Assembly (NCBI GenBank): GCA_014727915.1
Contig: WJMO01000006.1
Location: 65,376-129,375 of the forward strand
Direction: 5' to 3'
DNA from: Candidatus Altiarchaeales archaeon
GTDB lineage: Archaea > Altiarchaeota > Altiarchaeia > IMC4 > SCGC-AAA252-I15
Length of the DNA stretch: 64,000 bases
Of this stretch, positions 30,358-59,232 are shown piece by piece; position 1 is the first letter of the stretch, and each line of letters opens with the position of its first letter. The notes below the pieces were generated by a model. It was not told the origin of the DNA, searched no databases, and was given only the letters and a program-made list of their open reading frames with translations. The position numbers were made by a program, and so were the translations under genes.

Positions 30358-31980
30358 ATGAGTGACGTGGACGAACTAGTGGAGAGGGTTGCAAGCGAGA
30401 GCGGGAAGCCAGTGGAAGAGATAAGAGCTAAGATGTCGGAGCGTAAGGAGAAAACCCACGGTCTTCTCTCGGACTACGGGGCAGCCTACGCTGTCGCCAA
30501 AGAGTATGGGATCGACCTGAGCGACGGGGAGACGAGCGTCACGCCATTGTCGAACCTGCAGCCCTCGAACTCCGTCAACATCGTAGGCAGGGCTAAGACC
30601 GTCTTCTCAGAGCGTGAGTTCACCCGAAAGGACGGGGGGAAAGGCAAGTTCGCGTCGGTGGTGCTGTTGGACAACACGGGAGAGTCCCGTGTAGTACTAT
30701 GGGACAAGAACACAGCCGTAGTCAAGAAGCTTAGGGTGGGGGACGTGTTACTGCTCAAGAACGGCTATGTCAAGGAGAACAGGGGCCAGATTGAGGTCCA
30801 CGCGGGGGCTTTGAGCAACCTGGCCATAAACCCGTCGAACGTCACGGTCGAGTTGCCCGAGATAGAGGAGAGGATAGACAGCATCAGCGCTTTGGAGCCG
30901 GGGCTGCCTTCTGTGAATGTCATATGCAGGGTCAACAGCTACTATCCCAAGACCGAGTTCGAGCGTAGCGACGGGAGCAAGGGATCTCGGGCTTCGTTCA
31001 TCGCCGAGGACGAGACCGGCACCATCAGGGCCGTATTATGGGATCCCCTGTCGGATGCGGAGCTAAAGGAAGGGGACATCGTAAAGTTGGAGAACGCCTA
31101 CACCAGGGAGGGTTTGAACGGTGAGGTCGAGCTCCAGGGCGGGAGCAGGAGCAGGATAGGCAAGTCGGACGTTAAGCTGAAGCTGAAGCCGTTGGACAAG
31201 AAGAAGGCCGGGACGGTCAAGGTCGAAGACGTGAAGCCGGAGATGAGGGGTTTCACTTTGGAGGCGAGGGTGCTACGGGTCTACGAGCCCCGGGAATACT
31301 CCAAGGGCATGATGGCCTCGCTGATAGTCGGAGACGGCACCGGCAGCATAAGGACGGTATTGTGGAATGAGAAGTCGTCGGTCGCTAACGAACTGAAGGA
31401 GGGGGACTGCATCAGGATAAAGAACGCCTACAGCAGGAGCAACATGAACGACGAGGCCGAAGTCCACGTGGGCAAGTACACGGAGGTGACGGTGGACTCG
31501 GGCATAAAGGTCCCCACCGTGGGCGAGATAAACGACAAGCTGACAGAGGAGAAGAAGATAGCGGACCTGGACAGCGGCGACAGGTTTGTGAAGATCAAGG
31601 GTAAGATAGTTGACGTGGAGGACCGGGCCCTCGTGTACATGACCTGCTCGGAGTGCAACAAGAAGGTGCAGAACCTCGGGGGAGAGTGGATGTGCGAGGA
31701 GTGCGGCGTGGTCGACGGCAAGCCCAACATGATAGCCTCCGTGGTCGTCGAGGACGACAGCGGGAACATAAGGGCCGTCGCCTTCAGGGACAAGGCTGAG
31801 AAGATGCTCGGATTCGACCTGGAGGAGGCGATGAACATCATCGGGGAGACCCAGGACGAGCAGGCCCCGTTAGCCCACGCCCGGGAGAAGGTTGTTGGCG
31901 GCAGCATCACCTTGACGGGTAGGGTGAACTACAACGACTACAGCGAGCAGTTGGAGCTGGTAGTGGACGAGATAAGCTAA
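30358..31980 (+). CDS. rpa: replication protein A (ssDNA-binding, 4 OB folds + C-terminal zinc ribbon)
   Basis: Four repeated OB-fold units (e.g. VNIVGRAKTVFSEREFTRKDGGKGKFASVVLLDNTGESRVVLWDKN) and CSECNKKVQNLGGEWMCEECG. Confidence 0.8.
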   Translation: MSDVDELVERVASESGKPVEEIRAKMSERKEKTHGLLSDYGAAYAVAKEYGIDLSDGETSVTPLSNLQPSNSVNIVGRAKTVFSEREFTRKDGGKGKFASVVLLDNTGESRVVLWDKNTAVVKKLRVGDVLLLKNGYVKENRGQIEVHAGALSNLAINPSNVTVELPEIEERIDSISALEPGLPSVNVICRVNSYYPKTEFERSDGSKGSRASFIAEDETGTIRAVLWDPLSDAELKEGDIVKLENAYTREGLNGEVELQGGSRSRIGKSDVKLKLKPLDKKKAGTVKVEDVKPEMRGFTLEARVLRVYEPREYSKGMMASLIVGDGTGSIRTVLWNEKSSVANELKEGDCIRIKNAYSRSNMNDEAEVHVGKYTEVTVDSGIKVPTVGEINDKLTEEKKIADLDSGDRFVKIKGKIVDVEDRALVYMTCSECNKKVQNLGGEWMCEECGVVDGKPNMIASVVVEDDSGNIRAVAFRDKAEKMLGFDLEEAMNIIGETQDEQAPLAHAREKVVGGSITLTGRVNYNDYSEQLELVVDEIS

Positions 31981-48057: not shown

Positions 48058-48366
48058 ATGGAGAAGGCAAGGATCATCCTCATAGGGAAGGAGGTGGACC
48101 AGTTGGAGGACGTCTGCACCCAGATAGTGGACGTCACCAAGAAGACAGGCACCAAATACAGCGGGCCTGTCCCGTTGCCGACGAAGAAGATGAGGGTGAC
48201 CTGCCGGAAGAGCCCCGACGGAGAGGGCACCGGCACCTGGGAACGGTGGAGCATGCACATCCACAAGCGCATAATCGACGTATCAGCCAACGAACGAAGC
48301 CTAAGGCAGATAATGCGCATACAAGTCCCGGACGGCGTCCACATCGAAATAGAACTAACCAAATAA
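48058..48366 (+). CDS. rps10: 30S ribosomal protein S10
   Basis: Sequence and conserved position after EF-1alpha. Confidence 0.9.
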   Translation: MEKARIILIGKEVDQLEDVCTQIVDVTKKTGTKYSGPVPLPTKKMRVTCRKSPDGEGTGTWERWSMHIHKRIIDVSANERSLRQIMRIQVPDGVHIEIELTK

Positions 48367-48420
48367 AAAAAATGGGGGGATCCCTATCCTCCAATCCCCC
48401 TAAAAAAACCCCATTTTCTC

Positions 48421-48430
48421 ATATATTTAT
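48421..48430 (+). promoter_or_regulatory. TATA-like box (ATATATTTAT) ~28 bp upstream of the first GCTCCC(A)TAGTGTAGG 5'-exon copy
   Basis: Read directly; no comparable TATA element upstream of the second (functional-looking) copy at 48588. Confidence 0.35.
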
Positions 48431-48457
48431 TCCAATAACACGTAAGAAAACCACTAC

Positions 48458-48473
48458 GCTCCCATAGTGTAGG
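48458..48473 (+). repeat. duplicate of tRNA-Glu 5' end (GCTCCCATAGTGTAGG, 15/16 identical to 48588..48603) followed by a GC-rich hairpin (48504..48523)
   Basis: Direct comparison of the two 16-mers; downstream sequence does not fold into a tRNA by hand. Confidence 0.5.
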
Positions 48474-48587
48474 AACGGCTCGCTCCGTTCACACGCGCCG
48501 CGGGTGCCACCTAACGGTGGCACGCACATGAACCTTCCCCAAAGGAAGGGGATAAGAAGAACCAAAAAACACAGAAGATTACAAACC

Positions 48588-48760
48588 GCTCCCGTAGTGT
48601 AGGCCGGCCTATCATTCCGGACTTTCGAGAGCCCCTTTCTTTTACAAAAAGAAAGGTGCTTCACCCCCAAAGAAAACGAAAACCCAGGAAGGGGGTGAGT
48701 GTCCCAGTTAAGGACATCCGAAGAAATCCGGCGACTCGGGTTCGAATCCCGACGGGAGCA
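48588..48760 (+). tRNA. tRNA-Glu (anticodon UUC) with ~98-nt intron at canonical 37/38 position (intron ~48628..48725); CCA not encoded
   Basis: Hand-folded: acceptor GCTCCCG/CGGGAGC, 3-bp D-stem typical of tRNA-Glu (GTGTAGGCCGGCCTATCAT), anticodon stem CCGGA/TCCGG, loop CTTTCGA, T-arm TCGGG-TTCGAAT-CCCGA, discriminator A. Confidence 0.7.
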
Positions 48761-48779
48761 TCGAAACGGATGTTCGGTT

Positions 48780-49991
48780 TTAGGGGCAAACTAACGCCTC
48801 TTTAACCAATGTTCGGTTTTCTGACTTCTTAAATTTGTTTTCGAGCCAGTTTCTAAACTCCTGATTCTTGTACAGTTCTATGAAGAATTTCCTGGCCTCC
48901 TGTTCCTCTTTCTCGATTGCTCCGAGGGCTTCATCGACTAGTGGTGTTGCGCATCGGTTGCAATACCAGCTGTCTGGTGTGTTAGTTTTGTTGCATTTGC
49001 CGCATTTCCGGGGTTCTCTCGTCTCCATTGGTTCTGGTGGTTTGATTCCGTTCATCCCCAGTATTACATCATCAACATCTCGGCCGCTCAGGTGGACGTA
49101 GGTTGCGGCCATGTCTGAGCCCATTATCCATCCAAAGAACGCGCATAGTTGGCTTTCAGTCATTATTTTCGCGAGTTCTGTTGCTCGGCTGTGTCGGAAG
49201 TTGTGCGGGTGGCATTTGGCAGATGGAATGGCTGCGGCTTTTGCGTTTCTTTTTATCATCAATCGTATTGCATCATATCTCATGGGATTCTTGTATTGGA
49301 AGTCTAGCCAAAGGGGTGCGTCCATGTCGTCGCCGTGGGGGTGGTTCCTAATCCAGACCCTGAGGTATTGTTCTGGCTCCAAAACCAATATGCTCCTGGC
49401 TCCCGTCTTCCCCTTATGGACGTGTATCCTTGCCCCATTCTCCTCAAACACTATGTCCTTTACTCGGAGGGATCCGAGTTCACCAACTCTCAAACCTCCA
49501 TAATAAAGTAGGGATATTATGGCTCTGTCTCGGTCGAATTTACACGCCCTGATAATGGCGTCTACTTCCCCTATTGCTATCAGCTGTTCTGGAAGCTTCC
49601 GGTCCCTCCTCTTGACAGAGCATTTTATGAATTCTACCTTTTCGGGAGCTTTCCCGCCGTTCATTACCTTATAGAATTTCTTTATCCCTACTTTCAGGTC
49701 CTTCTTTGTGTGTGCAGCGGAGTCACAGAAATTTATGGTAGTCACCAGCTCCCGGAGGTCTTTCTCAGTCGCGTCCAAAAAGTCAAAATTGTAGTCTGAT
49801 AACTTCATGATTTTGCCATATATGGCATAGTATTTGCGGATGCGCATTTCCCCAATATTCTCTGAAGCTATCAGGTTGACGAACTCGTTTATGGCGTCTT
49901 TGTTTTTCTGGGTGATTCTTGGGTCTTGGTTGAACTTGTTCTTTTCGTAGCCTATGCCGTATTTGCCCCGGTAGATAGAGTTAGCGTCCAT
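48780..49991 (-). CDS. int: tyrosine recombinase / integrase (XerC/D-phage integrase family) with C-terminal zinc ribbon
   Basis: HNFRHSRAT (HxxR) and ATYVHLSG (catalytic Tyr) motifs; CGKCNKT...CNRC ribbon; gene abuts tRNA 3' end. Confidence 0.85.
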   Translation of the reverse strand: MDANSIYRGKYGIGYEKNKFNQDPRITQKNKDAINEFVNLIASENIGEMRIRKYYAIYGKIMKLSDYNFDFLDATEKDLRELVTTINFCDSAAHTKKDLKVGIKKFYKVMNGGKAPEKVEFIKCSVKRRDRKLPEQLIAIGEVDAIIRACKFDRDRAIISLLYYGGLRVGELGSLRVKDIVFEENGARIHVHKGKTGARSILVLEPEQYLRVWIRNHPHGDDMDAPLWLDFQYKNPMRYDAIRLMIKRNAKAAAIPSAKCHPHNFRHSRATELAKIMTESQLCAFFGWIMGSDMAATYVHLSGRDVDDVILGMNGIKPPEPMETREPRKCGKCNKTNTPDSWYCNRCATPLVDEALGAIEKEEQEARKFFIELYKNQEFRNWLENKFKKSENRTLVKEALVCP

Positions 49992-50333
49992 CCTCCCTCA
50001 AAAGCCGGCAGGCTTCCTCCCAGGACAATCCAAAGCCCTGAATAAGCCTCCGGAACAGTGTTATATGCTCTGGCAGGGTCTTCTCCAGTAAAATCTCATA
50101 CTGCTCTTCCACACATACATATAGGACGAGATTCGACTTGTCCTTACTGCAAAAACCTATAGATTCCACGTACACACGTGAGACACACACCTATAAAAAC
50201 TAGTAGGACTCTGCAGTAGAAGACCAATAGCTTAACTTCTTCTAATAGGTTGGCAGATGCGTTTCAAATATAGATAGGTGCAAGTATTCTGCTGGATTTG
50301 TCCTTTTTTATGGTTACTATCAATGTTTTTCAT

Positions 50334-51977
50334 ATGCAAATATCTTATGCTCATTGGATATCTGTGATATTTCTCTTATGCGCTTTTTCAGGTTGTGTTT
50401 CTGAAGATGTCAAAGATAATACTAACCTGTCGGAGGAGGTAGGTACTGGGAGTTCACCCTTGGATGAATACCTAGCCACCTATGACCGTTTGTTCGTCCA
50501 TGGGAGGGAGATAAATGCATCGTTTAACCGTTTGGATCTTCTTCAGACTCAGCGGGTTAATCTGTTCACTGACTTAGAGAACCTTGCTGGCAGCCCAAGG
50601 GTAATGCACAGTGAGGCTGAGATGGAGGAATTTCAGTCCCAAGTAGACGATATTCTCCAAAATATCAGCGACGTATTGAGTGCCGAGCGGGAGACATTGG
50701 ACCTGCTTGAGATGCAGGCTAGCCAACGGGAGGAGTATATACGCAATCTGAGCGCCAAGTCAGCAGGTCTTGATTCGGAGCGCATGCAATACGCCGATAA
50801 GATTGGCGAATACTTCCAGAAATCGAATGTCCGCCTGATGGAGTTTGTATCCCATTACCAGAACCATGTGCGTCTGACTAATGAAAGCCTGCAGAGGATT
50901 ATACGCCGGGAAGGCAGCAGCGGCTACCCTGAAGAGCGTGTAAACACGGCAATTCTCATAAGAAAGAGTCATAGGCAGATGAATGAGTTGATAATACTCG
51001 GCAAAGACGAATACGCCAAATTGCTCCAGACAGCTGACACCCCCATAAACAAGTCCATAGTGAAGGTCTATATCTGCCCAGATGAGAGGGAAGTAGGCGA
51101 TATCGAAGAATGCGGGCTGACGGAAAACGACCTGACCTACATTAACCTCGCCAAGAAACTGCTGGAATGCGACGAAATACCCGAAGGCGAAGAGAACACC
51201 AAATGCTACTACGACGCCATAGTGCCGTTCTACAACATCTCCCTGTGCGAAATAATCGGAGATACCGAATGGAGAAATGGGAACATATGGAAGGGATACT
51301 GCTACGCCGACATAGCCAAACACTACAACAACGAGTCAATCTGCGCCAAAGGCAAGGACTGGGTTCGAGTTGAGTACTGCTATGAGATGGTAGCCCGGAA
51401 AAAACAAGACATAACAGTCTGCGAAAACATCAAAGAGGACCGTCGTAGCATGTGCTATATGTACATAGGCTTGGACAAACGAGACAAGGACATCTGCAAT
51501 ATGATACCTAGAGACGACATAAGAGAAAGCTGCCTTGACAAAATCGGAGGAAACAAACCGGATGCTGGAGCAACTGATGATTCCAAATCTGACAGCCAGG
51601 TCCTTGGCCTAGAGCCCCAGCACATACTAGGCGTTAATATGCCCCCTGAAGAAGGTCTTAGAGTACTTGAGATTATAGCCGTGCCGAGGAAAAACAGTGA
51701 ACCCCTGCATCTACCCCCAGTAACAATACAGGTGACAGCCAGCGATGAAGACATATACTTGAATCACAGCTTCCAGTCAATAAAGCAGGGCACAGCCTAC
51801 AGGGAAGGCTACCTGTCACAAGGAGACATCATAATGATAACCATAAACCTCAAAGAAGCCGTCAAAGAAAACCAGAAACTCAAAATCAAGATAATCCCAG
51901 AAACAGGCACAACCACAATTGCAGAACCCGCCACACCCCAACAGATAATCACCCAAAGAACCAACATCTGGCCATAA
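50334..51977 (+). CDS. secreted lipoprotein: coiled-coil N-half, Cys-rich C-half
   Basis: Lipobox LLCAFSGC (start placed at internal Met 50334); heptad-like region; 20+ Cys in C-terminal half. Confidence 0.45.
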   Translation: MQISYAHWISVIFLLCAFSGCVSEDVKDNTNLSEEVGTGSSPLDEYLATYDRLFVHGREINASFNRLDLLQTQRVNLFTDLENLAGSPRVMHSEAEMEEFQSQVDDILQNISDVLSAERETLDLLEMQASQREEYIRNLSAKSAGLDSERMQYADKIGEYFQKSNVRLMEFVSHYQNHVRLTNESLQRIIRREGSSGYPEERVNTAILIRKSHRQMNELIILGKDEYAKLLQTADTPINKSIVKVYICPDEREVGDIEECGLTENDLTYINLAKKLLECDEIPEGEENTKCYYDAIVPFYNISLCEIIGDTEWRNGNIWKGYCYADIAKHYNNESICAKGKDWVRVEYCYEMVARKKQDITVCENIKEDRRSMCYMYIGLDKRDKDICNMIPRDDIRESCLDKIGGNKPDAGATDDSKSDSQVLGLEPQHILGVNMPPEEGLRVLEIIAVPRKNSEPLHLPPVTIQVTASDEDIYLNHSFQSIKQGTAYREGYLSQGDIIMITINLKEAVKENQKLKIKIIPETGTTTIAEPATPQQIITQRTNIWP

Positions 51978-52522
51978 GAGAGATTTGATTAAGCGGGTCT
52001 TGTGAAGCTCTGTTTTGGAATCAGGGCTTGTTTCACTGCCTGTTTTTGTGTCAGGGCCTAACCGCTGTTGTTTGTACAGCCATGTACAGCGGAAATGCTC
52101 AGAAGGGCAAACAAAGCTCAACAGTCAATTTTCAAAATCTGCATATATTCACCCCTAAGCATAGGTGATTCTACTGCTTGGATGTCTACATCAGAATATC
52201 TACTTCAAAAAATAGGAGGGGATAATCTGGGCAGAAAACAAGGGATGAATCATTGCCTGAAGTAAATTCAGGGGTTTGTTCACTGCCAGTATTGGTTTCT
52301 GGTTGTATTGGGAGCTGTTGGAGCTACAGTGAGCTACATGAGCTATAGTAATTGGAAAACATAGCCTGATTAAAGGAGTTTGTTTGGAGCAAATCATCCC
52401 CCCTATTTCCAGCAGGCGAGCAATTAATCCACTATACGAAAGACAGACGGGTTAGGGTTATTCATAGCACTTTAGCTGCTAAAACATGTTTAAACATAAT
52501 TTAGGATATTTAAACCGCTTAT

Positions 52523-54406
52523 ATGAATATTATCCAAGGTGGTGGAATGATGGTCCGGTCTGATTCTAAGGTTATAGGCTACCTTTCCCTGCTTCTCATC
52601 TTCTCCTTAGGCTCCATATTGGTTGAATCAACTTCCCCAGCCTCCTCCACCCTCGACGACAACACAATCCTGATCACATCAACCACGCTTTTACCAACTA
52701 CTACGACGTTGGAGGAAACCACCACCTCCACAGTTAAAGACTCAACCTCAACCACCACACTCCCTACACTATCCTCCGGGGATAAGTTATCTGAAGACTA
52801 TAAGAAAGATAATCACGCATATAATGTGGTATTGAAGTCTGAACCACGCGATTACACTATCGAATTCATAGTCCACGATGTTCCAGTCAAGATTAGTCAC
52901 CATAATTTGAATGGGGGTGGTGTTGAGGTGAGTCCTAGTTTTGACATGCGCTACATCAGCGACGACACCATCGAATACAGGAACATGTACGGAGATGGAA
53001 TCAACACCCAATATGAGTTAACGAGTAATCTGATAAAGGAGAACATCATCTTGGAAGATGACGAATATATCGAATCCACCGGCCTTTCTTCGTCAACCAT
53101 GAGCATTGAGTTTTCAATCATTAACCCGGAATTTATTGTGCCCAGCTTAGACGGCAAAACCGAATGGAAAGGAGACGTGAAAACAACAGGGGAGGATATC
53201 TTCTTCATCAGAAAGAAGGAACCCCACAGACTATATGCAGTAAACAGATTCTACAGGGTTAAAGCACCCTACCTTGAGGATGCGGATGATCGGAGAGTTG
53301 ATTTGACGTACACAATGAAGAATGTGGAGGGGAAATTGTTGTTAACCCTGGATATTCCCCCAATATTAGGTGAATTAGAGTACCCGGTTGTCGTTGACCC
53401 CTCTGTCTATCTTGACACCAGCCACGACGGCTTTGAGTGGATTAACGAAGACGACTGCAACACATACGACAGCTGGTGTGACAACTACGAATCCGAAAAC
53501 AACATGCAATTCAGGATACCAAACGACTGCTCCACCGACGGACAGGTCAGTAAGCCAACGTTCAGGTTCGACACAAACGGATTAGACGATGAACACTACG
53601 GTGATGTAGTAGCTGCAGACCTGCATATTGAAGGAACATGCGGCGGACAGAGTAGCCTAGACCCAGATGAATGGGTTTTATTATATGAAGTAACCGAGTT
53701 CGAAGGCACACCCGCATGTGAAGGAGAGAACGCACCCGATAAAGTAGGGGTGTCGATTGCGACATTAATGTCCGACTACTACTGCGCTGGAACTAAAGAA
53801 AAGGATATAACAGACGAATTCACCACCGCAGTGGAAAACGAACAAAACATCTCCTTCCAAATAGACCTTGACCCAAGCCGAAACTCAACATACGAACCCA
53901 CATACGACATAAAATACGACATATCAGATTCAAACCTTTACATAGAATATTGGTTCGACTGCGAAGTCTATGATGACTGCGCAGACCCAAGTGAATTCTG
54001 CTGGGACGACTCCGGCGGACTATGCCAAGACGACCTACAATACGGAGAATCATGCGAAGACATCGCCACAGACAACGACAACTACGCCTGCCAAAACAAC
54101 AACTGCGAACTAGATGACTTTGATGGCCTGGGAGCATACTGCACAGAAGACAACAAATGCACCCACGACGGAACACAATACACCACAGGCCAAATACACT
54201 GCAACCAAACAACCGGAAACAGCTACTGGAAAAACTGCACAGGAACCAACTGGAGCACCCAAACAAACTGCACCTACGGCTGCACCGAAAACACAGGCTG
54301 CGCCACCACAACCACAACAACAACCACCAGCACAACAACAACCACAACACTAGAAGGAGATATCAGCGTATCAAAAAATCAAATCACAATCACGGTGATA
54401 AAATGA
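52523..54406 (+). CDS. secreted protein with Thr-rich linkers and C-terminal Cys-rich domain
   Basis: N-terminal TM/signal; TTLLPTTTTLEETTTST and TTTTTTTSTTTTTT runs. Confidence 0.5.
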   Translation: MNIIQGGGMMVRSDSKVIGYLSLLLIFSLGSILVESTSPASSTLDDNTILITSTTLLPTTTTLEETTTSTVKDSTSTTTLPTLSSGDKLSEDYKKDNHAYNVVLKSEPRDYTIEFIVHDVPVKISHHNLNGGGVEVSPSFDMRYISDDTIEYRNMYGDGINTQYELTSNLIKENIILEDDEYIESTGLSSSTMSIEFSIINPEFIVPSLDGKTEWKGDVKTTGEDIFFIRKKEPHRLYAVNRFYRVKAPYLEDADDRRVDLTYTMKNVEGKLLLTLDIPPILGELEYPVVVDPSVYLDTSHDGFEWINEDDCNTYDSWCDNYESENNMQFRIPNDCSTDGQVSKPTFRFDTNGLDDEHYGDVVAADLHIEGTCGGQSSLDPDEWVLLYEVTEFEGTPACEGENAPDKVGVSIATLMSDYYCAGTKEKDITDEFTTAVENEQNISFQIDLDPSRNSTYEPTYDIKYDISDSNLYIEYWFDCEVYDDCADPSEFCWDDSGGLCQDDLQYGESCEDIATDNDNYACQNNNCELDDFDGLGAYCTEDNKCTHDGTQYTTGQIHCNQTTGNSYWKNCTGTNWSTQTNCTYGCTENTGCATTTTTTTTSTTTTTTLEGDISVSKNQITITVIK

Positions 54407-55203
54407 GGATCCAAACCATATTCATACTAGCTGCATTAGTCATCAGCGGGTGCATTACGCCAGAAAAACAGACAACAACGACCACAATTTTGACTACAAG
54501 CACCATTGGTTATCGCTCAACTACATCTACACTAACCAAATCAACAACCACTACTGTAACCACAACGTTATTCACTACCCCAACAACCCTCATGACTAGT
54601 TGGGGGACGATAAGTGGGCGGGTGATAGAGACTACATATATCCGCGATAATTTTTGTCAATTCTCCGATGTATCTTTATGTGTCAACAACTCCAATGATG
54701 TTAGCACTTCAGTCTCAAACGTATCCAATGTCAGAGTTGTTTTATTCCATAATTTGTCGTATATGAATGAAACACAAACTAACCATTTTGGAGAGTTTTC
54801 TTTCTACGCTAAAACGGACAATTATGGCATACTATTCTACAAAAATGGTCATGCATACATTTACAACCAGGATATCAATAGGGATTGGGAACATAAACAG
54901 ATTGTGGAAAATATCGTCCCCCAGGGGAATAGCCAAGAACCGATAATTTTTGACATAGGACGCGAAAAGCCAGACTTTACAGAAGGAGTAATATATGTCG
55001 CCTTAAAGAACAATTCCCTCATGCCCGAAGAGATTAATAAGACCGCATTGAAGTATGGGTGTGAGTATGTGTCTAAAAATCGGCTAGGATTTGTCCGACT
55101 AAAAACACCCTCGGATCAAACAGAATTAGAGATTCAAAAAAAACTCTCTAATGACCCGAATTTTCAGCAGCCATTCCTAGATTCGCTCACATCAACCATA
55201 TGA
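54403..55203 (+). CDS. lipoprotein with Thr-rich stalk and I9-propeptide-like C-terminal segment
   Basis: Start ATG 54403 overlaps previous stop (ATGA); lipobox VISGC; the ORF-track 54157 start adds a spurious His/Asn-rich extension. Confidence 0.45.
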   Translation: MRIQTIFILAALVISGCITPEKQTTTTTILTTSTIGYRSTTSTLTKSTTTTVTTTLFTTPTTLMTSWGTISGRVIETTYIRDNFCQFSDVSLCVNNSNDVSTSVSNVSNVRVVLFHNLSYMNETQTNHFGEFSFYAKTDNYGILFYKNGHAYIYNQDINRDWEHKQIVENIVPQGNSQEPIIFDIGREKPDFTEGVIYVALKNNSLMPEEINKTALKYGCEYVSKNRLGFVRLKTPSDQTELEIQKKLSNDPNFQQPFLDSLTSTI

Positions 55204-55207
55204 TAAC

Positions 55208-55498
55208 ATGAAATTATTAACCACCATATACGTCTTAGCTATACTCAGCAGCTTAGCAATCCAGACCAGCGCGTCTAACGATTCGATTAGGTCAGCATGG
55301 GTTGATTCAGTATTATACAAACAACTAACAGAACAAAATGAAACCTTAGTCCTTGTGGTATTAAAAAATGATATCGGCCTAAAATTCCAGGGTAGCCTAC
55401 AGAACAAAAAGACAATCTATTTCACTAACCGCATAAATTATTTCAAAGATGAAGATGCTGTTCTCCAAACACTCCAGAAAGACGAATTCCTACCCTGA
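55208..55498 (+). CDS. small secreted protein, peptidase-inhibitor I9 (subtilisin propeptide)-like
   Basis: Signal peptide; VDSVLYKQLTEQNETLVLVVLKND similar in pattern to N-terminal propeptide of the subtilase downstream. Confidence 0.4.
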   Translation: MKLLTTIYVLAILSSLAIQTSASNDSIRSAWVDSVLYKQLTEQNETLVLVVLKNDIGLKFQGSLQNKKTIYFTNRINYFKDEDAVLQTLQKDEFLP

Positions 55499-55682
55499 CA
55501 ATAAACAGGCCCCAACGCATGTTCCCTTTACATGCAACAACATGACCCACTAGCCTTCAAGCCAAACAAAGCCCAAACCCAGGAGTAAACTCTAAGAATA
55601 TATCTATGTCCACTATGGATTCAGGCCTGTAAATAGCCGCCTTGAGGATAGAAATGGAATAAATTAACCATAATGCTTAAAC

Positions 55683-56279
55683 ATGGCTTTTAAAGGCCTT
55701 TTTTTAATGGGTTTATCTGGTGGTTGGATGATGTATCATAAGGCTTATGTTTTAGCGTTTTGCGTTATCTTATGTGGTTGTTTACAGTCAGAAGACAGTT
55801 CTACTACGTTAACCTCTACGAGCAGTACACTACCTCAATCCACTACTACTAACCCGTCCACAACTCTTAAATTACCTCCCTCAACCACTACAACAACATT
55901 ACATTCTAGAGAAAATGGTTCCATCATTTATCCCAACCAGGAGATTAGAGAGGACATAAATAAGATAATTATTATGTTTAATGATGAAGTTTTAGACAAT
56001 ATCACTGCTAAAGTCAAATATAATGCAAGTCATCCAAACGAAAAATTTGATAAATATTTCATATATGATTTGCAATTAGAAACTGAAAAAGAATACGGTG
56101 TTAAAAATCTAACAAGGAGATACTATTCACTAATCAATGGTGGCTCCGTCACCATTTCATACGATGAGAATCTATCCGATGCAGATAAGAAAATAGCAGG
56201 CGATAAACTCCTCAATAACCTAGATAATAGATGGTATACTAAAAACGCTGGATACAATGTGATAGGTACTTACACATGA
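55683..56279 (+). CDS. lipoprotein with Thr/Ser-rich stalk and I9-like C-terminal segment
   Basis: Lipobox ILCGC; RRYYSLINGGSVTISYDENLSD resembles TRYSLINGFSGYVTKEGLKKLE of the subtilase propeptide. Confidence 0.4.
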   Translation: MAFKGLFLMGLSGGWMMYHKAYVLAFCVILCGCLQSEDSSTTLTSTSSTLPQSTTTNPSTTLKLPPSTTTTTLHSRENGSIIYPNQEIREDINKIIIMFNDEVLDNITAKVKYNASHPNEKFDKYFIYDLQLETEKEYGVKNLTRRYYSLINGGSVTISYDENLSDADKKIAGDKLLNNLDNRWYTKNAGYNVIGTYT

Positions 56280-58087
56280 AAATAAAAAGTATATTCTTAG
56301 TGTTGGTAACTACAGGTCTACTTATTTCACATGTTCATGCAGTCAATAACGATAAAACAAGAGTTATAGACAAAACAGTATATGAAAAAGTAGAAAAAGA
56401 TGGTGAAGCTTTTGTAATCATTATCTTGAATAGGATTAACAAAACTAAAACTCGTTGGAAAACAGAAACTCAACGGATTAACATACTGTCTGACAAGAAG
56501 AACAAGATTTTTCAGAGTCAGGAAAAACTTTTGTCTTCATTATCTGTAAATGAATTCAGGATAAAGACAAGGTATAGTCTTATAAATGGTTTTTCAGGTT
56601 ATGTCACAAAAGAGGGGTTAAAAAAATTAGAGAACAATGAAGATATTGTTAGCGTCTATCTTAATAGAAGAGGAGAATACAATCTTGCAGAGAGCATACC
56701 TATAATCAGAGCAAATGATACATGGAGCACGAATGTGGGTAGTAACAATATTACTGGCTTGAATATTGGTGTATGCGTTATTGATTCTGGGGTTAATTAT
56801 AGTCACGCAGACCTGGGAGGCTGTAGCGACGCTCAATATCTTAATGGTGAGTGTAGTAAAGTTATAGCAGGTTTTGATACGTTTGAAGATATACCTATTC
56901 CAAGAGATACTGTTGGACATGGCACTATGATAGCAGGAATTGTTGGAGCAAACGGTAATCTAAAAGGAGTTGCCCCAAATGTAGGCATAGTAGCCTTAAA
57001 AATTGGCGATGCCTGGGATGAAGACGCTGCCAACGAGGCATTAGAATGGTGCACAAGTAACAAATCAAAATATAACATAACAGTGCTAACCTTAAATATA
57101 AAGTATAACAGTACAGAAGAGGATAATTGCTATCCGGATTCTGGATTATGCCTTGAGATTAAAGAAGCATATGAGAACGGCATCTTTGTTGCTATGTCCT
57201 CTGGAAATGACGGTTATACAGATAAAATAGATTTCCCAGCATGTTGTGAAGGGGGCTTTTCGGTTGGAGCAACAACAGACGATGACCAAATAACTGGATT
57301 CACAAGTAGAAGCCAATATCTTGACTTATTGGCTCCAGGAAATACAATAAATTCTACAAGATGGTCTTCTGGTTTTTCCCCAACACCATGTATGGGTAGT
57401 TGCACATGCAATGAGGATTATATGGAATGCTGGGGAACATCATTTGCAGCACCACATGTTGCTGGAGTTGCAGCATTAATCACTCAAATCGATAATACAA
57501 TACTGCCTGATGATATAGGCTATATCCTAAAGGAAACTGGCGTCCCTATTTTTGACAATTCTACAAATTATACATTCCCTCGTGTTGATGCTTATAATGC
57601 TGCCTCAATGGCTTTAAGGAGTGATTTCTTTGATGTCTCAAACACAGGAGGTGCTAATTTGTCAGTCTATGCGATAAACAGTACTGACTCATGGATAAGC
57701 TCATTATATCCCCAATCATTTATTCTTGAACCCGGAGCAAATCAAACAGTAATGGTAACAGTAGATTTGCCAGATGACATGAATATCGGGAGTTATTCAA
57801 CAACTGTTGACATATACAGTAATGACCCCGATGAATCTTCTGTATCTGTCAGCATAAAATATCAGAAAATACACTACGGTTGCACAGGCATATGCCCCCC
57901 ACAAACAGGTGATTGGATAATCAACAACTACACAGCAATATGGTACAATGATACAGTGATAGATGGTGATATCAACATAAACTCAACCACATTGTTCCTT
58001 GGAGAACAAGAAACCAATCTAAGTGAAAAGAACCTTATCTTAAATGGTGAACTAAAATTGGACAATGGTGTTATAAGATTTGACTAA
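56276..58087 (+). CDS. subtilisin-like serine protease (peptidase S8) with N-terminal I9 propeptide
   Basis: Catalytic Asp (VIDSGVNYSHADLGG), His (HGTMIAGIVGA), Ser (GTSFAAPHVAGVAALI). Confidence 0.85.
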   Translation: MKIKSIFLVLVTTGLLISHVHAVNNDKTRVIDKTVYEKVEKDGEAFVIIILNRINKTKTRWKTETQRINILSDKKNKIFQSQEKLLSSLSVNEFRIKTRYSLINGFSGYVTKEGLKKLENNEDIVSVYLNRRGEYNLAESIPIIRANDTWSTNVGSNNITGLNIGVCVIDSGVNYSHADLGGCSDAQYLNGECSKVIAGFDTFEDIPIPRDTVGHGTMIAGIVGANGNLKGVAPNVGIVALKIGDAWDEDAANEALEWCTSNKSKYNITVLTLNIKYNSTEEDNCYPDSGLCLEIKEAYENGIFVAMSSGNDGYTDKIDFPACCEGGFSVGATTDDDQITGFTSRSQYLDLLAPGNTINSTRWSSGFSPTPCMGSCTCNEDYMECWGTSFAAPHVAGVAALITQIDNTILPDDIGYILKETGVPIFDNSTNYTFPRVDAYNAASMALRSDFFDVSNTGGANLSVYAINSTDSWISSLYPQSFILEPGANQTVMVTVDLPDDMNIGSYSTTVDIYSNDPDESSVSVSIKYQKIHYGCTGICPPQTGDWIINNYTAIWYNDTVIDGDININSTTLFLGEQETNLSEKNLILNGELKLDNGVIRFD

Positions 58088-58393
58088 AAAGCCCGATTAA
58101 TGCCCCAATATGGAAAAGAAGTCCGAGTATAATACATGCAAAACATTCCCCCTCACTATGAATCCCTTTAATGTGGGGCAATCACAGTGCATCATCGGCC
58201 TAGCCTGTTTGTTTTTGTAAGCCGTCTGTTTATTCTGGTGCAGCCTATTCAATTGATAGGCATATGGCTCTTTGGGGTGCTAGTGTTTTGGCGTAGATGG
58301 ACAAGTTAGGGGTTGTTGGCTCTTGTTGTTGGTCTTCTGTTGGTGGTTTCGACGGGAGCAAGAGGGGTCTTACGACCCCTTCTAATCCCCACA

Positions 58394-58425
58394 GTCGGGT
58401 TCGTGCCTGGATCCCGGCGGGAGCA
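58394..58425 (+). repeat. diverged copy of tRNA-Glu 3' segment (attR-like); a second 11-nt partial copy CGACGGGAGCA at 58350..58360
   Basis: Manual alignment to 48733..48760. Confidence 0.5.
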
Positions 58426-58446: not shown

Positions 58447-59232
58447 TTATCCCATGAATTTTTTCATCATCATGATGATTGCTAGGGCTATGAATGTTAT
58501 GCCTATGGTTTTTGATAGTTTTTCGTCTGTGGTTTTGTTGGCGAATTTTGAGGCGGTGGCGGCTCCGATAATGCTTGCTGTTCCTGTGATTAGGATTTCC
58601 GGTAGGGGTGTTCCGGTGTGTATGAAGTGTCCGATGGCGCCGCTTAAGGCGATGAATGTCATTATGAGTACTGAGGTTCCTATGGCTGTTTTTACTTCGT
58701 ATCCTAGGATGAAGGTTAGGATGATGAGGATCATTATTCCCCCGCCCGCGCCGATGAAGCCGCAGATTACTCCGATGAGCAGTCCGAAAAATATTGATGA
58801 GAGTGTTTTGTTTCTCTTGAACACGTGAAGGTCGTGGTGTTCTCTGAATTCTTTTAGTCTTTCGTTTATCGGTTTTCGTATGAAGTTAACTCCCATGATT
58901 AGGATTGCGATTCCTGCGCCTCTGCCGAGGAGGGAATCTGGCATGTGGCTTGATAATATGCTTCCGAGGAAGGCACCGAATACCGCCATCACTGTTAATA
59001 TAATCCCGTTTTTCAGGTCAATGTGCTTGTACCGATAGTAATTAAGAGCAGATGTGCTTGACGCGAACACGTCTGTCGCAAGGCTTATCCCGATCGCCGT
59101 GAATGCTGGATAGTCCAGGAATGCGACGAGCATCGGCGTTACGATAACCGCCGCGGATGCTCCCACAAGGCCTGTCACGATCCCTGCGAAAAACCCAGCT
59201 ATTATGAGGAATACCGCCGATATCACGTCCAT
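58447..59232 (-). CDS. TauE/SafE (DUF81) family anion exporter/permease
   Basis: 261 aa, ~8 TM, GxGGG motifs (GLVGASAAV, GFIGAGGGIMI). Confidence 0.7.
   Translation of the reverse strand: MDVISAVFLIIAGFFAGIVTGLVGASAAVIVTPMLVAFLDYPAFTAIGISLATDVFASSTSALNYYRYKHIDLKNGIILTVMAVFGAFLGSILSSHMPDSLLGRGAGIAILIMGVNFIRKPINERLKEFREHHDLHVFKRNKTLSSIFFGLLIGVICGFIGAGGGIMILIILTFILGYEVKTAIGTSVLIMTFIALSGAIGHFIHTGTPLPEILITGTASIIGAATASKFANKTTDEKLSKTIGITFIALAIIMMMKKFMG

Follow-up and report, generated by a model that had tools for sequence, protein, structure and literature searches.

A probable recombination relic of the tRNA-Glu gene start, recurring beside ribosomal protein S10 in Altiarchaeota

Introduction

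In Caldiarchaeum subterraneum, a 5' fragment of tRNA-Thr(GGU), named tRNA-Thr-F, lies upstream of the intron-containing tRNA-Thr-II gene, an arrangement ascribed to a mobile element (Sugahara et al. 2012, PMC3293823). The pTN3-like integrases of Thermococcales have their target site in the 5' half of a tRNA gene; once rebuilt, that gene is expressed from a promoter of the element (PMC8371274). The split tRNA-Glu of Nanoarchaeum equitans has two 5' halves that share one 3' half (PMC4033280). Here we describe a tRNA-Glu(UUC) locus in a 64-kb stretch of an Altiarchaeales genome (the window; coordinates are window positions), where the start of an intron-containing gene occurs twice, once in the working gene and once as an isolated copy 130 bp upstream. 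We propose that the upstream copy is probably the stranded original start of the gene, a recombination relic at an integration hotspot, and that the gene is now read through a leader of ~136 nt. We favour this reading, while holding it with some reserve, because the copy sits at the ancestral promoter, recurs in related species, varies in length among them, decays, and in some species belongs to mosaic units.

The tRNA-Glu gene and its upstream copy

The single gene that ARAGORN calls in the window with introns enabled is tRNA-Glu(ttc), 48588-48760, interrupted after position 37 by an intron of 98 nt (48628-48725). When 48588-48627 is joined to 48726-48760, the resulting 75 nt fold as a standard cloverleaf. 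Because of the intron, the gene is missed in the 64-kb window by ARAGORN at default settings and by the Rfam tRNA model (gathering and E-value modes), which return chance matches at most. The copy of the first 16 nt (GCTCCCATAGTGTAGG) is the sole other match to them in the 64 kb, even when three mismatches are allowed; the chance expectation for a 16-mer with no more than one mismatch on the same strand within 200 bp is ~2e-6. Its one mismatch, an A for G at acceptor position 7, would mispair with C66, and ARAGORN with introns enabled calls no tRNA there. An earlier sequence-only reading had described most of these features: an intron of about 98 nt at 37/38, a second copy of the first 16 nt lying 130 bp upstream with one mismatch at position 7 and not folding as a tRNA, a TATA-like sequence ~28 bp before that copy, and a GC hairpin after it. 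All of them were recovered, the TATA-like sequence as ATATATTTAT and the hairpin as GTGCCACC-TAAC-GGTGGCAC at 48504-48523 (Table 1). The same reading saw no TATA box at 48588, and we likewise find no A/T-rich box 18-40 bp upstream of that position.

The gene order in the window is EF-2, EF-1alpha, S10 and then the tRNA-Glu region. The S10 protein is 100% identical to a Candidatus Altiarchaeales archaeon protein, and its close homologues are all from Altiarchaeota. Using S10 as an anchor, we gathered the corresponding loci of ~30 Altiarchaeota species (numbered L001 and so on), and tRNA-Glu(UUC) follows S10 in all of those collected. Where the tRNA start is present as a single copy, an A/T-rich box precedes the tRNA, which begins 47-90 bp downstream of the S10 stop codon; the upstream copy in the window begins 92 bp after S10. 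The sequence 'catatat..ACGTAAGA' upstream of the copy recurs in the promoters of three distant single-copy species, L020, L029 and L038. Within clade A, to which the window belongs, conservation extends through the S10 hairpin and the T-rich/TATA block as far as the first copy. Since the copy occupies the place of the tRNA start in single-copy species and has a homologous promoter, the comparison indicates that it marks the ancestral gene start and that the working gene is displaced by 130 bp. The tRNA 5' part is thus directly repeated at this locus, one copy lying at the native promoter, as at sites where pTN3-like elements target the 5' half of the gene.

Recurrence in related Altiarchaeota

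An automated search for prefix copies (at least 12 nt of the tRNA start, no more than one mismatch, within 400 bp upstream) detected them in 10 of the 30 species loci; the controls on the same loci gave 0/30 for the downstream side and 1/30 for the reverse complement. Shorter or more degenerate relics occur in L009, L014, L064 and L069. Overall, relics are present in 10-13 of 30 related species. On a neighbour-joining species tree of EF-1alpha and S10, they are found in 6/6 fully sampled members of clade A, in 4/6 of clade B, and in no other lineage. Each relic-bearing locus has one or two copies of 8-31 nt, which precede stable hairpins and then an A-rich stretch; the spans from copy to tRNA in relatives are 73-316 bp.

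The retained tRNA length differs among species: 8 nt in L069; 12 nt in L008, L047 and L064; 15-16 nt in the window, L017, L007, L009 and L014; 18 nt in L018; 22-28 nt in L010 and L019; and 25-31 nt in L006. Mismatches sit in the promoter-proximal copies (A7 in the window and in L019, 2/16 in L009 and 3/16 in L014). Two extra copies stand in tandem in L007, L009 and L017, those of L017 forming perfect 68-bp units. The tandem units of L007 (4652-4967) and L009 (4391-4674) are mosaics in which a 49-nt insert separates tRNA positions 1-16 from positions 17-33. This insert contains a GC hairpin and an anticodon-arm-like hairpin, GGCTCTTCGAGCC, followed by the variable-loop sequence CGAC, and the older units retain traces of the 3' acceptor strand.

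L013 (420-1670) has an insert of about 1.1-1.25 kb between S10 and tRNA-Glu, which encodes two open reading frames (ORFs; 118 and 159 amino acids). Searches of the insert ORFs of L013 and L019 against Pfam and PHROGs were uninformative, and those of L013 have no family match. The left end of the L013 insert resembles the window spacer hairpin, and its right end carries an ATGAA-type motif (see below). It may be an insertion that was not deleted. Many metagenome contigs of close relatives (L044, L045, L051, L053, L055 and L060-L062) end 40-210 bp after S10, at the relic/tRNA-Glu region, which hints at strain heterogeneity or at repeats that break assembly.

Spacer and leader structure

The spacer between copy and gene is 114 bp long and non-coding. 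It has no significant similarity to any other locus, except for a short motif, nor to any other part of the window. The spacer is predicted to form hairpins with a z-score of -2.8 (0/200 shuffles equally stable), and the leader as a whole is more structured than shuffled sequences (z = -3.5). We found no C/D-box or H/ACA features in the spacer or the intron when reading them by eye.

The short motif, of the form ATGAA-stem-loop-stem-GGATA, has 11 well-formed instances in a search space of ~381 kb, all on the plus strand upstream of tRNA-Glu starts and none elsewhere. They lie in the window at 48528-48554 and in L007 (4543-4930), L008 (2220), L009 (4486/4629), L011 (4435) and L046 (647), and their stems vary between instances yet remain paired. 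We considered the motif as a promoter and as a small ORF. It is not an element at a fixed position, as its distance to the tRNA start ranges from 21 to 43 nt, and its reading as an ORF is inconsistent across species. A motif-like ATGAA sequence also stands directly after the tRNA 3' end in L046. A second kind of structure, A/T-rich hairpins of the CCTTTTT...AAAAAGG type, is confined to the surroundings of tRNA-Glu, where it forms the first element of the intron, follows relics directly, or lies in the flanks; hairpins like these also stand at the start of tRNA-Asp and tRNA-Thr introns.

The longest T-run in the window spacer is 2, and the plus strand from 48300 to 48900 contains no terminator-like site. 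The window, L006, L007 and L014 all lack both an A/T-rich box near the working gene and a spacer T-run longer than 4. In L017 and L019, the spacer has a T5 run and an A/T-rich box is present near the working gene. Transcription of the window tRNA from the old promoter, in a precursor with a structured leader, is plausible, because there is no A/T-rich box near the gene, the spacer has no T-run or terminator, and the ancestral TATA box is conserved. The sequence-only reading had listed such a leader, transcribed from the upstream promoter, among its options. The relic may compete during folding of this precursor, because in the predicted fold of the whole molecule its GCUCCC takes over the role of the true 5' end in pairing with the 3' acceptor strand; A7 would weaken the competition.

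The intron

The strict bulge-helix-bulge (BHB) scan, which required two 3-nt bulges with 4 bp between them (definition of PMC4033280), placed the junction pair 48627/48725 among the two best of the region. The outer helix has 5 bp, the central helix 4 bp (C32-G, U33-A, U34-A and U35-G), and the bulges are in register. The sequence-only reading had proposed to look for a BHB at the exon-intron junctions; in the predicted structure at 37/38 the inner helix has just 1 bp, so that the motif is relaxed. The intron end GAAG-NN is kept in L015 and L018; in L009 it is GGAG, with pairing retained through G-U.

At 98 nt, the intron is unusually long; the range in relatives is 38-149 nt. Its 5' ~50 nt (48628-48680), comprising the hairpin CCCCTTTCTTTT..AAAAGAAAGGTG and CTTCACCCCCAAAG, are conserved in four species (window, L009, L015 and L018) about as well as the exons, and the remainder varies among them. 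The intron families are at odds with the EF-1alpha and S10 tree: L007 and L009 are related and have different introns, and the tRNA-Glu intron of L046 resembles the tRNA-Asp intron of L039. The same hairpin, a pyrimidine run paired with a purine run, heads the long introns of tRNA-Asp (L039), tRNA-Glu (L046) and tRNA-Thr (L018 6563-6749). The discordance suggests that introns have been exchanged or are mobile, and that the body of the tRNA-Glu gene has been exchanged horizontally. In addition, ARAGORN with introns enabled mislabels the orthologues in L006, L007, L009, L013, L017 and L066 as tRNA-Ser or tRNA-Stop.

The integrated island and neighbouring features

The working gene is directly followed by an island of ~9.6 kb whose protein families were assigned from Pfam. 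Its cargo includes a flagellin/pilin-like protein of 559 amino acids, repeat-rich proteins that appear to be secreted, and a subtilase (56276-58087). The integrase adjoins the tRNA gene, the tRNA end is repeated at the far end of the island, and the GC content is atypical; by these features the island is evidently an element of the classical kind that integrates at tRNA 3' ends. The 11-nt repeat CGACGGGAGCA also occurs by chance within an ORF at 30969, and the 11-mer alone is weak evidence for the right boundary. Beyond it lies an older remnant of the tRNA-Glu T-arm and 3' acceptor, located where the GC content changes, directly ahead of the host TauE gene (58447-59232). The last 15 nt of this remnant are identical to the tRNA-Glu 3' end of L001, and they match the tRNA-Glu of relatives, not the present gene.

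Homologous integrases adjoin the tRNA-Glu 3' end in L006, L013, L015 and L041, and tRNA-Asp in L039. At the integrase-proximal junction of L040, just 8-13 nt from the 3' terminus of the tRNA are present, and the A/T-rich DNA before them is unrelated. Remnants of the tRNA-Glu 3' end are also present in L001, L009, L021 and L046. A search with the integrase found five loci in metagenomes and no relatives among viral contigs. A small hairpin, AGGGGCAAAC..GCCT, located between the tRNA and the stop codon of the integrase gene, is flanked by a direct repeat of 12 nt, ATGTTCGGTTTT (48770-48781 and 48809-48820). Sequences like this repeat ('TGTTCGG..TTTAGGGGCAAAC') adjoin the integrase homologues in L013, L040 and L041. 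The repeats may be arm-binding sites of the integrase.

Upstream of the promoter, the S10 gene is followed by a hairpin whose loop, CCTATCCTCC, resembles the 16S rRNA 3' end (anti-Shine-Dalgarno-like) and is found in the window, L006-L009, L014, L046 and L066.

Table 1. Features of the S10-tRNA-Glu locus and the adjoining island (window positions).
Feature	Position	Strand	Basis
Ribosomal protein S10 gene	48058-48366	+	Pfam Ribosomal_S10, E=1.5e-27; S10-tRNA-Glu synteny in relatives
Hairpin after S10 (GGGGGGAT ... ATCCCCC), loop CCTATCCTCC	48374-48400	+	Loop invariant in 7 related species (alignment)
TATA-like box ATATATTTAT, proposed ancestral tRNA-Glu promoter	48421-48430	+	Direct reading; 28 bp before copy
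Probable relic copy of tRNA-Glu positions 1-16	48458-48473	+	15/16 match, 130 bp upstream of gene
Hairpin 1, GAACGG-CTCGCT-CCGTTC, begins at last relic base	48473-48490	+	Minimum-free-energy fold
Hairpin 2, G+C-rich, GGTGCCACC-TAAC-GGTGGCAC	48503-48523	+	Predicted folds
Motif ATGAA-[CCTTCC-ccaaa-GGAAGG]-GGATA	48528-48554	+	Motif search; well-formed instances in relatives
A-rich unstructured tail of leader, without TATA-like box	48555-48587	+	Fold; A/T-box scan
tRNA-Glu(UUC) exon 1, positions 1-37	48588-48627	+	ARAGORN -i; cloverleaf once spliced
Intron, 98 nt, canonical 37/38 site, three internal hairpins	48628-48725	+	ARAGORN -i; fold; alignment
tRNA-Glu exon 2, positions 38-73, CCA not encoded	48726-48760	+	ARAGORN -i; cloverleaf
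Left attachment-site core CGACGGGAGCA, equal to tRNA 3' end	48750-48760	+	Repeated at 58350-58360
Low-GC integrated island, ~9.6 kb	48761-58349	.	GC 36-49% vs 54-60% in flanks; Pfam
Tyrosine integrase, 403 amino acids, C-terminal zinc ribbon	48780-49991	-	Pfam Phage_integrase, E=7.6e-19
Distal 11-nt copy of tRNA 3' end, CGACGGGAGCA	58350-58360	+	Direct repeat
Older 31-nt tRNA-Glu T-arm and 3' acceptor remnant, TCGGGTTCG-tgcctgg-ATCCCGGCGGGAGCA, host-type variant	58395-58425	+	Sequence comparison

Discussion

We propose that recombination placed ~114 bp of foreign or rearranged DNA, together with a fresh and intact 5' end, downstream of the old gene start. The most likely route would be mobile-element activity at the tRNA-Glu hotspot. 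An element with an attachment site overlapping the tRNA 5' part, as in pTN3-type sites, may have integrated and later lost its interior; or a second complete tRNA-Glu copy may have been acquired, after which the upstream copy decayed. The old promoter would now transcribe a precursor with a ~136-nt leader consisting of the relic, three hairpins and the A-rich tail. RNase P would remove this leader at 48588, and the splicing endonuclease would remove the intron. The relic would contribute nothing to the mature tRNA, which would come from the working, intron-containing gene at 48588-48760. A recombination scar was one of three options in the sequence-only reading, and it is supported by the ancestral position and promoter of the copy, by the recurring relics in Altiarchaeota, and by the integration hotspot.

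Several observations weigh against this account. None of the 30 loci has an element gene between relic and tRNA, or a second intact copy; the intermediates that we propose were thus not observed, and this is the main weakness of the proposal. The spacer of the window consists of 114 non-coding bp without element DNA or parts of a (split) integrase, and tblastn with the local integrase gave no match between the copies. Judging from the L040 junction and from the window's distal repeats, the sole integrase found is directed at the final ~11 nt at the 3' end of the tRNA. A relic is kept by each of the six fully sampled clade A members, though their spacers cannot be aligned. All 14 of 14 spacers fold better than shuffled sequences (z = -1.6 to -4.6), with a hairpin directly after every relic. 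The spacers of L008 and L047 are homologous and differ by compensatory changes in their stems, and between L007 and L009 the units show ~94% identity over 85 nt, whereas EF-1alpha and S10 of these species are only 80% identical. Clade A retention, hairpin-rich spacers, compensation and the L007/L009 similarity could reflect selection and not neutral debris.

Such selection would be expected if relic and hairpin spacer formed a functional module at the tRNA-Glu locus that, however it arose, has been kept for what it does. It might act as a structured 5' leader or small RNA in the folding, processing or expression of tRNA-Glu, or as a decoy or buffer for integrases. The four observations just named fit this explanation, as do the relics in four of six clade B species and the ATGAA-hairpin-GGATA motif, whose stems are varied but paired and which occurs only upstream of tRNA-Glu. 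We nevertheless regard such a module as possible but unlikely: the spacers of the closest relatives (window, L006 and L046) have no common sequence, relic length and spacer architecture differ by species, several relics are decayed, and about two thirds of the species have no relic, including L046 of the same clade. Palindromes may also persist or arise at the DNA level, and horizontal transfer can explain the high similarity of units. A further possible mechanism at the DNA level is ectopic insertion of intron-type hairpins in the 5' exon (at positions 8, 12, 16, 28 or 31), after which a duplication of the start would have rescued the gene. Intron-type hairpins stand directly after the relics in L006, L010, L017, L019, L064 and L069, and the same hairpin family heads tRNA-Glu, tRNA-Asp and tRNA-Thr introns; both facts fit this mechanism. 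That the relic-hairpin units are either a selected, lineage-wide leader or small-RNA module or the footprints of mobility of long hairpin-led introns seems doubtful to us.

The remaining explanations concern the origin of the copy in the adjoining island and its use as a tRNA piece. The island could have made the relic if its element had brought an intron-containing tRNA with the spacer and displaced the host gene. Its integrase does adjoin the tRNA, all four other S10-linked loci with a homologous integrase have an intron-containing tRNA-Glu, and the intron families depart from the species tree. Yet the integrase-proximal junction of L040 holds about 8-13 nt of the tRNA 3' end only, the distal repeats in the window are 3'-terminal only, and the same integrase family adjoins tRNA-Asp in L039. 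Moreover, L015 and L041 have the integrase without a relic, and eight species (L007-L010, L014, L017-L019) have a relic without such an integrase. The 3'-only junctions and the lack of correlation between integrase and relic imply that this element family carries neither the intron nor the tRNA 5' part; together with the tRNA-Asp target they lead us to reject an element-borne intron-tRNA with spacer, and we consider an island origin of the relic quite improbable. The third option of the sequence-only reading was an alternative 5' half using the one 3' half. Taken as a piece spliced in cis or trans onto the single 3' part, as in a split or tri-split tRNA, it is rejected as very improbable. The copy does have its own promoter-like box, and its UGUA (positions 11-14) is weakly self-complementary, so that two copies could form a 4-bp helix with bulges at 16/17. 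Against this, an intact gene is present at 48588-48760, contrary to what defines a split tRNA, and the copy ends at position 16 without an anticodon and therefore cannot make another isoacceptor. A7 breaks the acceptor stem, and copies in other species are identical to the working 5' end or degenerate. The strict BHB scan gave no credible motif for 48473/48603 or nearby (by hand, the outer helix has 1 bp and the inner 0 bp), and there is no complementary leader, as the predicted spacer folds are local hairpins only. We also considered the spacer as a D-loop intron at 16/17, running from relic to gene, and found no BHB beyond the weak UGUA:UGUA helix.

We thus continue to favour a stranded gene start left by recombination. 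The conserved spacer structure and the ATGAA-hairpin-GGATA motif could nevertheless point to an unrecognised processing or recombination signal. The locus also has a practical consequence: Altiarchaeota genomes will seem to lack tRNA-Glu in standard annotation, because standard tRNA finders and Rfam miss the long-intron gene. More broadly, the S10-tRNA-Glu locus offers a phylum-wide natural series of disruption and repair of a tRNA gene, with stranded 5' ends, tandem relics, exchanged introns and 3' attachment remnants. This series bears on the origin of introns, fragments and split tRNA genes in Archaea, and on mobile elements as their driver (PMC3293823, PMC4033280).

Comparison with known systems

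The intron is like the canonical archaeal BHB introns at 37/38 (PMC4033280) in position, in its 4-bp central helix and in its 3-nt bulges. It differs from them in its length (98 nt), in a 5' hairpin module that is conserved across species, and in the relaxed inner helix of 1 bp. The occurrence of related introns in different tRNAs (Glu, Asp and Thr) recalls the transposing tRNA introns of Thermoproteales (PMC4090602). The 9.6-kb island resembles classical tyrosine-recombinase integration at tRNA 3' ends, of the pNOB8 or SNJ2-like kind (PMC8371274), with an adjoining integrase and a short repeat at the far end; such integration accounts for the 3' remnants, not for the 5' relic.

The Nanoarchaeum split tRNA-Glu shares with the Altiarchaeota locus the amino-acid family and a second, promoter-linked 5' copy. 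However, the Nanoarchaeum halves reach the anticodon loop, differ in anticodon, have complementary leaders that form a relaxed BHB, and coexist with no intact gene, none of which holds here. In pTN3-type sites, as at this locus, the tRNA 5' part is duplicated and a partial copy remains at the old promoter, with the rebuilt pTN3 gene standing behind element DNA. Unlike those sites, the window has no split (suicidal) integrase or element gene between the copies, and the duplicated length ranges from 8 to 31 nt among species.

The 5' tRNA fragment upstream of an intact, intron-containing gene is also the arrangement of tRNA-Thr-F in Caldiarchaeum. There, 1.8 kb encoding a recombinase lie in between, whereas here the copies are separated by 114 non-coding bp without a recombinase, and the Altiarchaeota pattern is found again in many species of a single phylum, in some of them as tandem units. 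Fragments of tRNA genes that recombination has left beside an intron-containing archaeal tRNA are thus already known; what is notable in the present case is the phylum-wide recurrence, the tandem units and the structured spacers.

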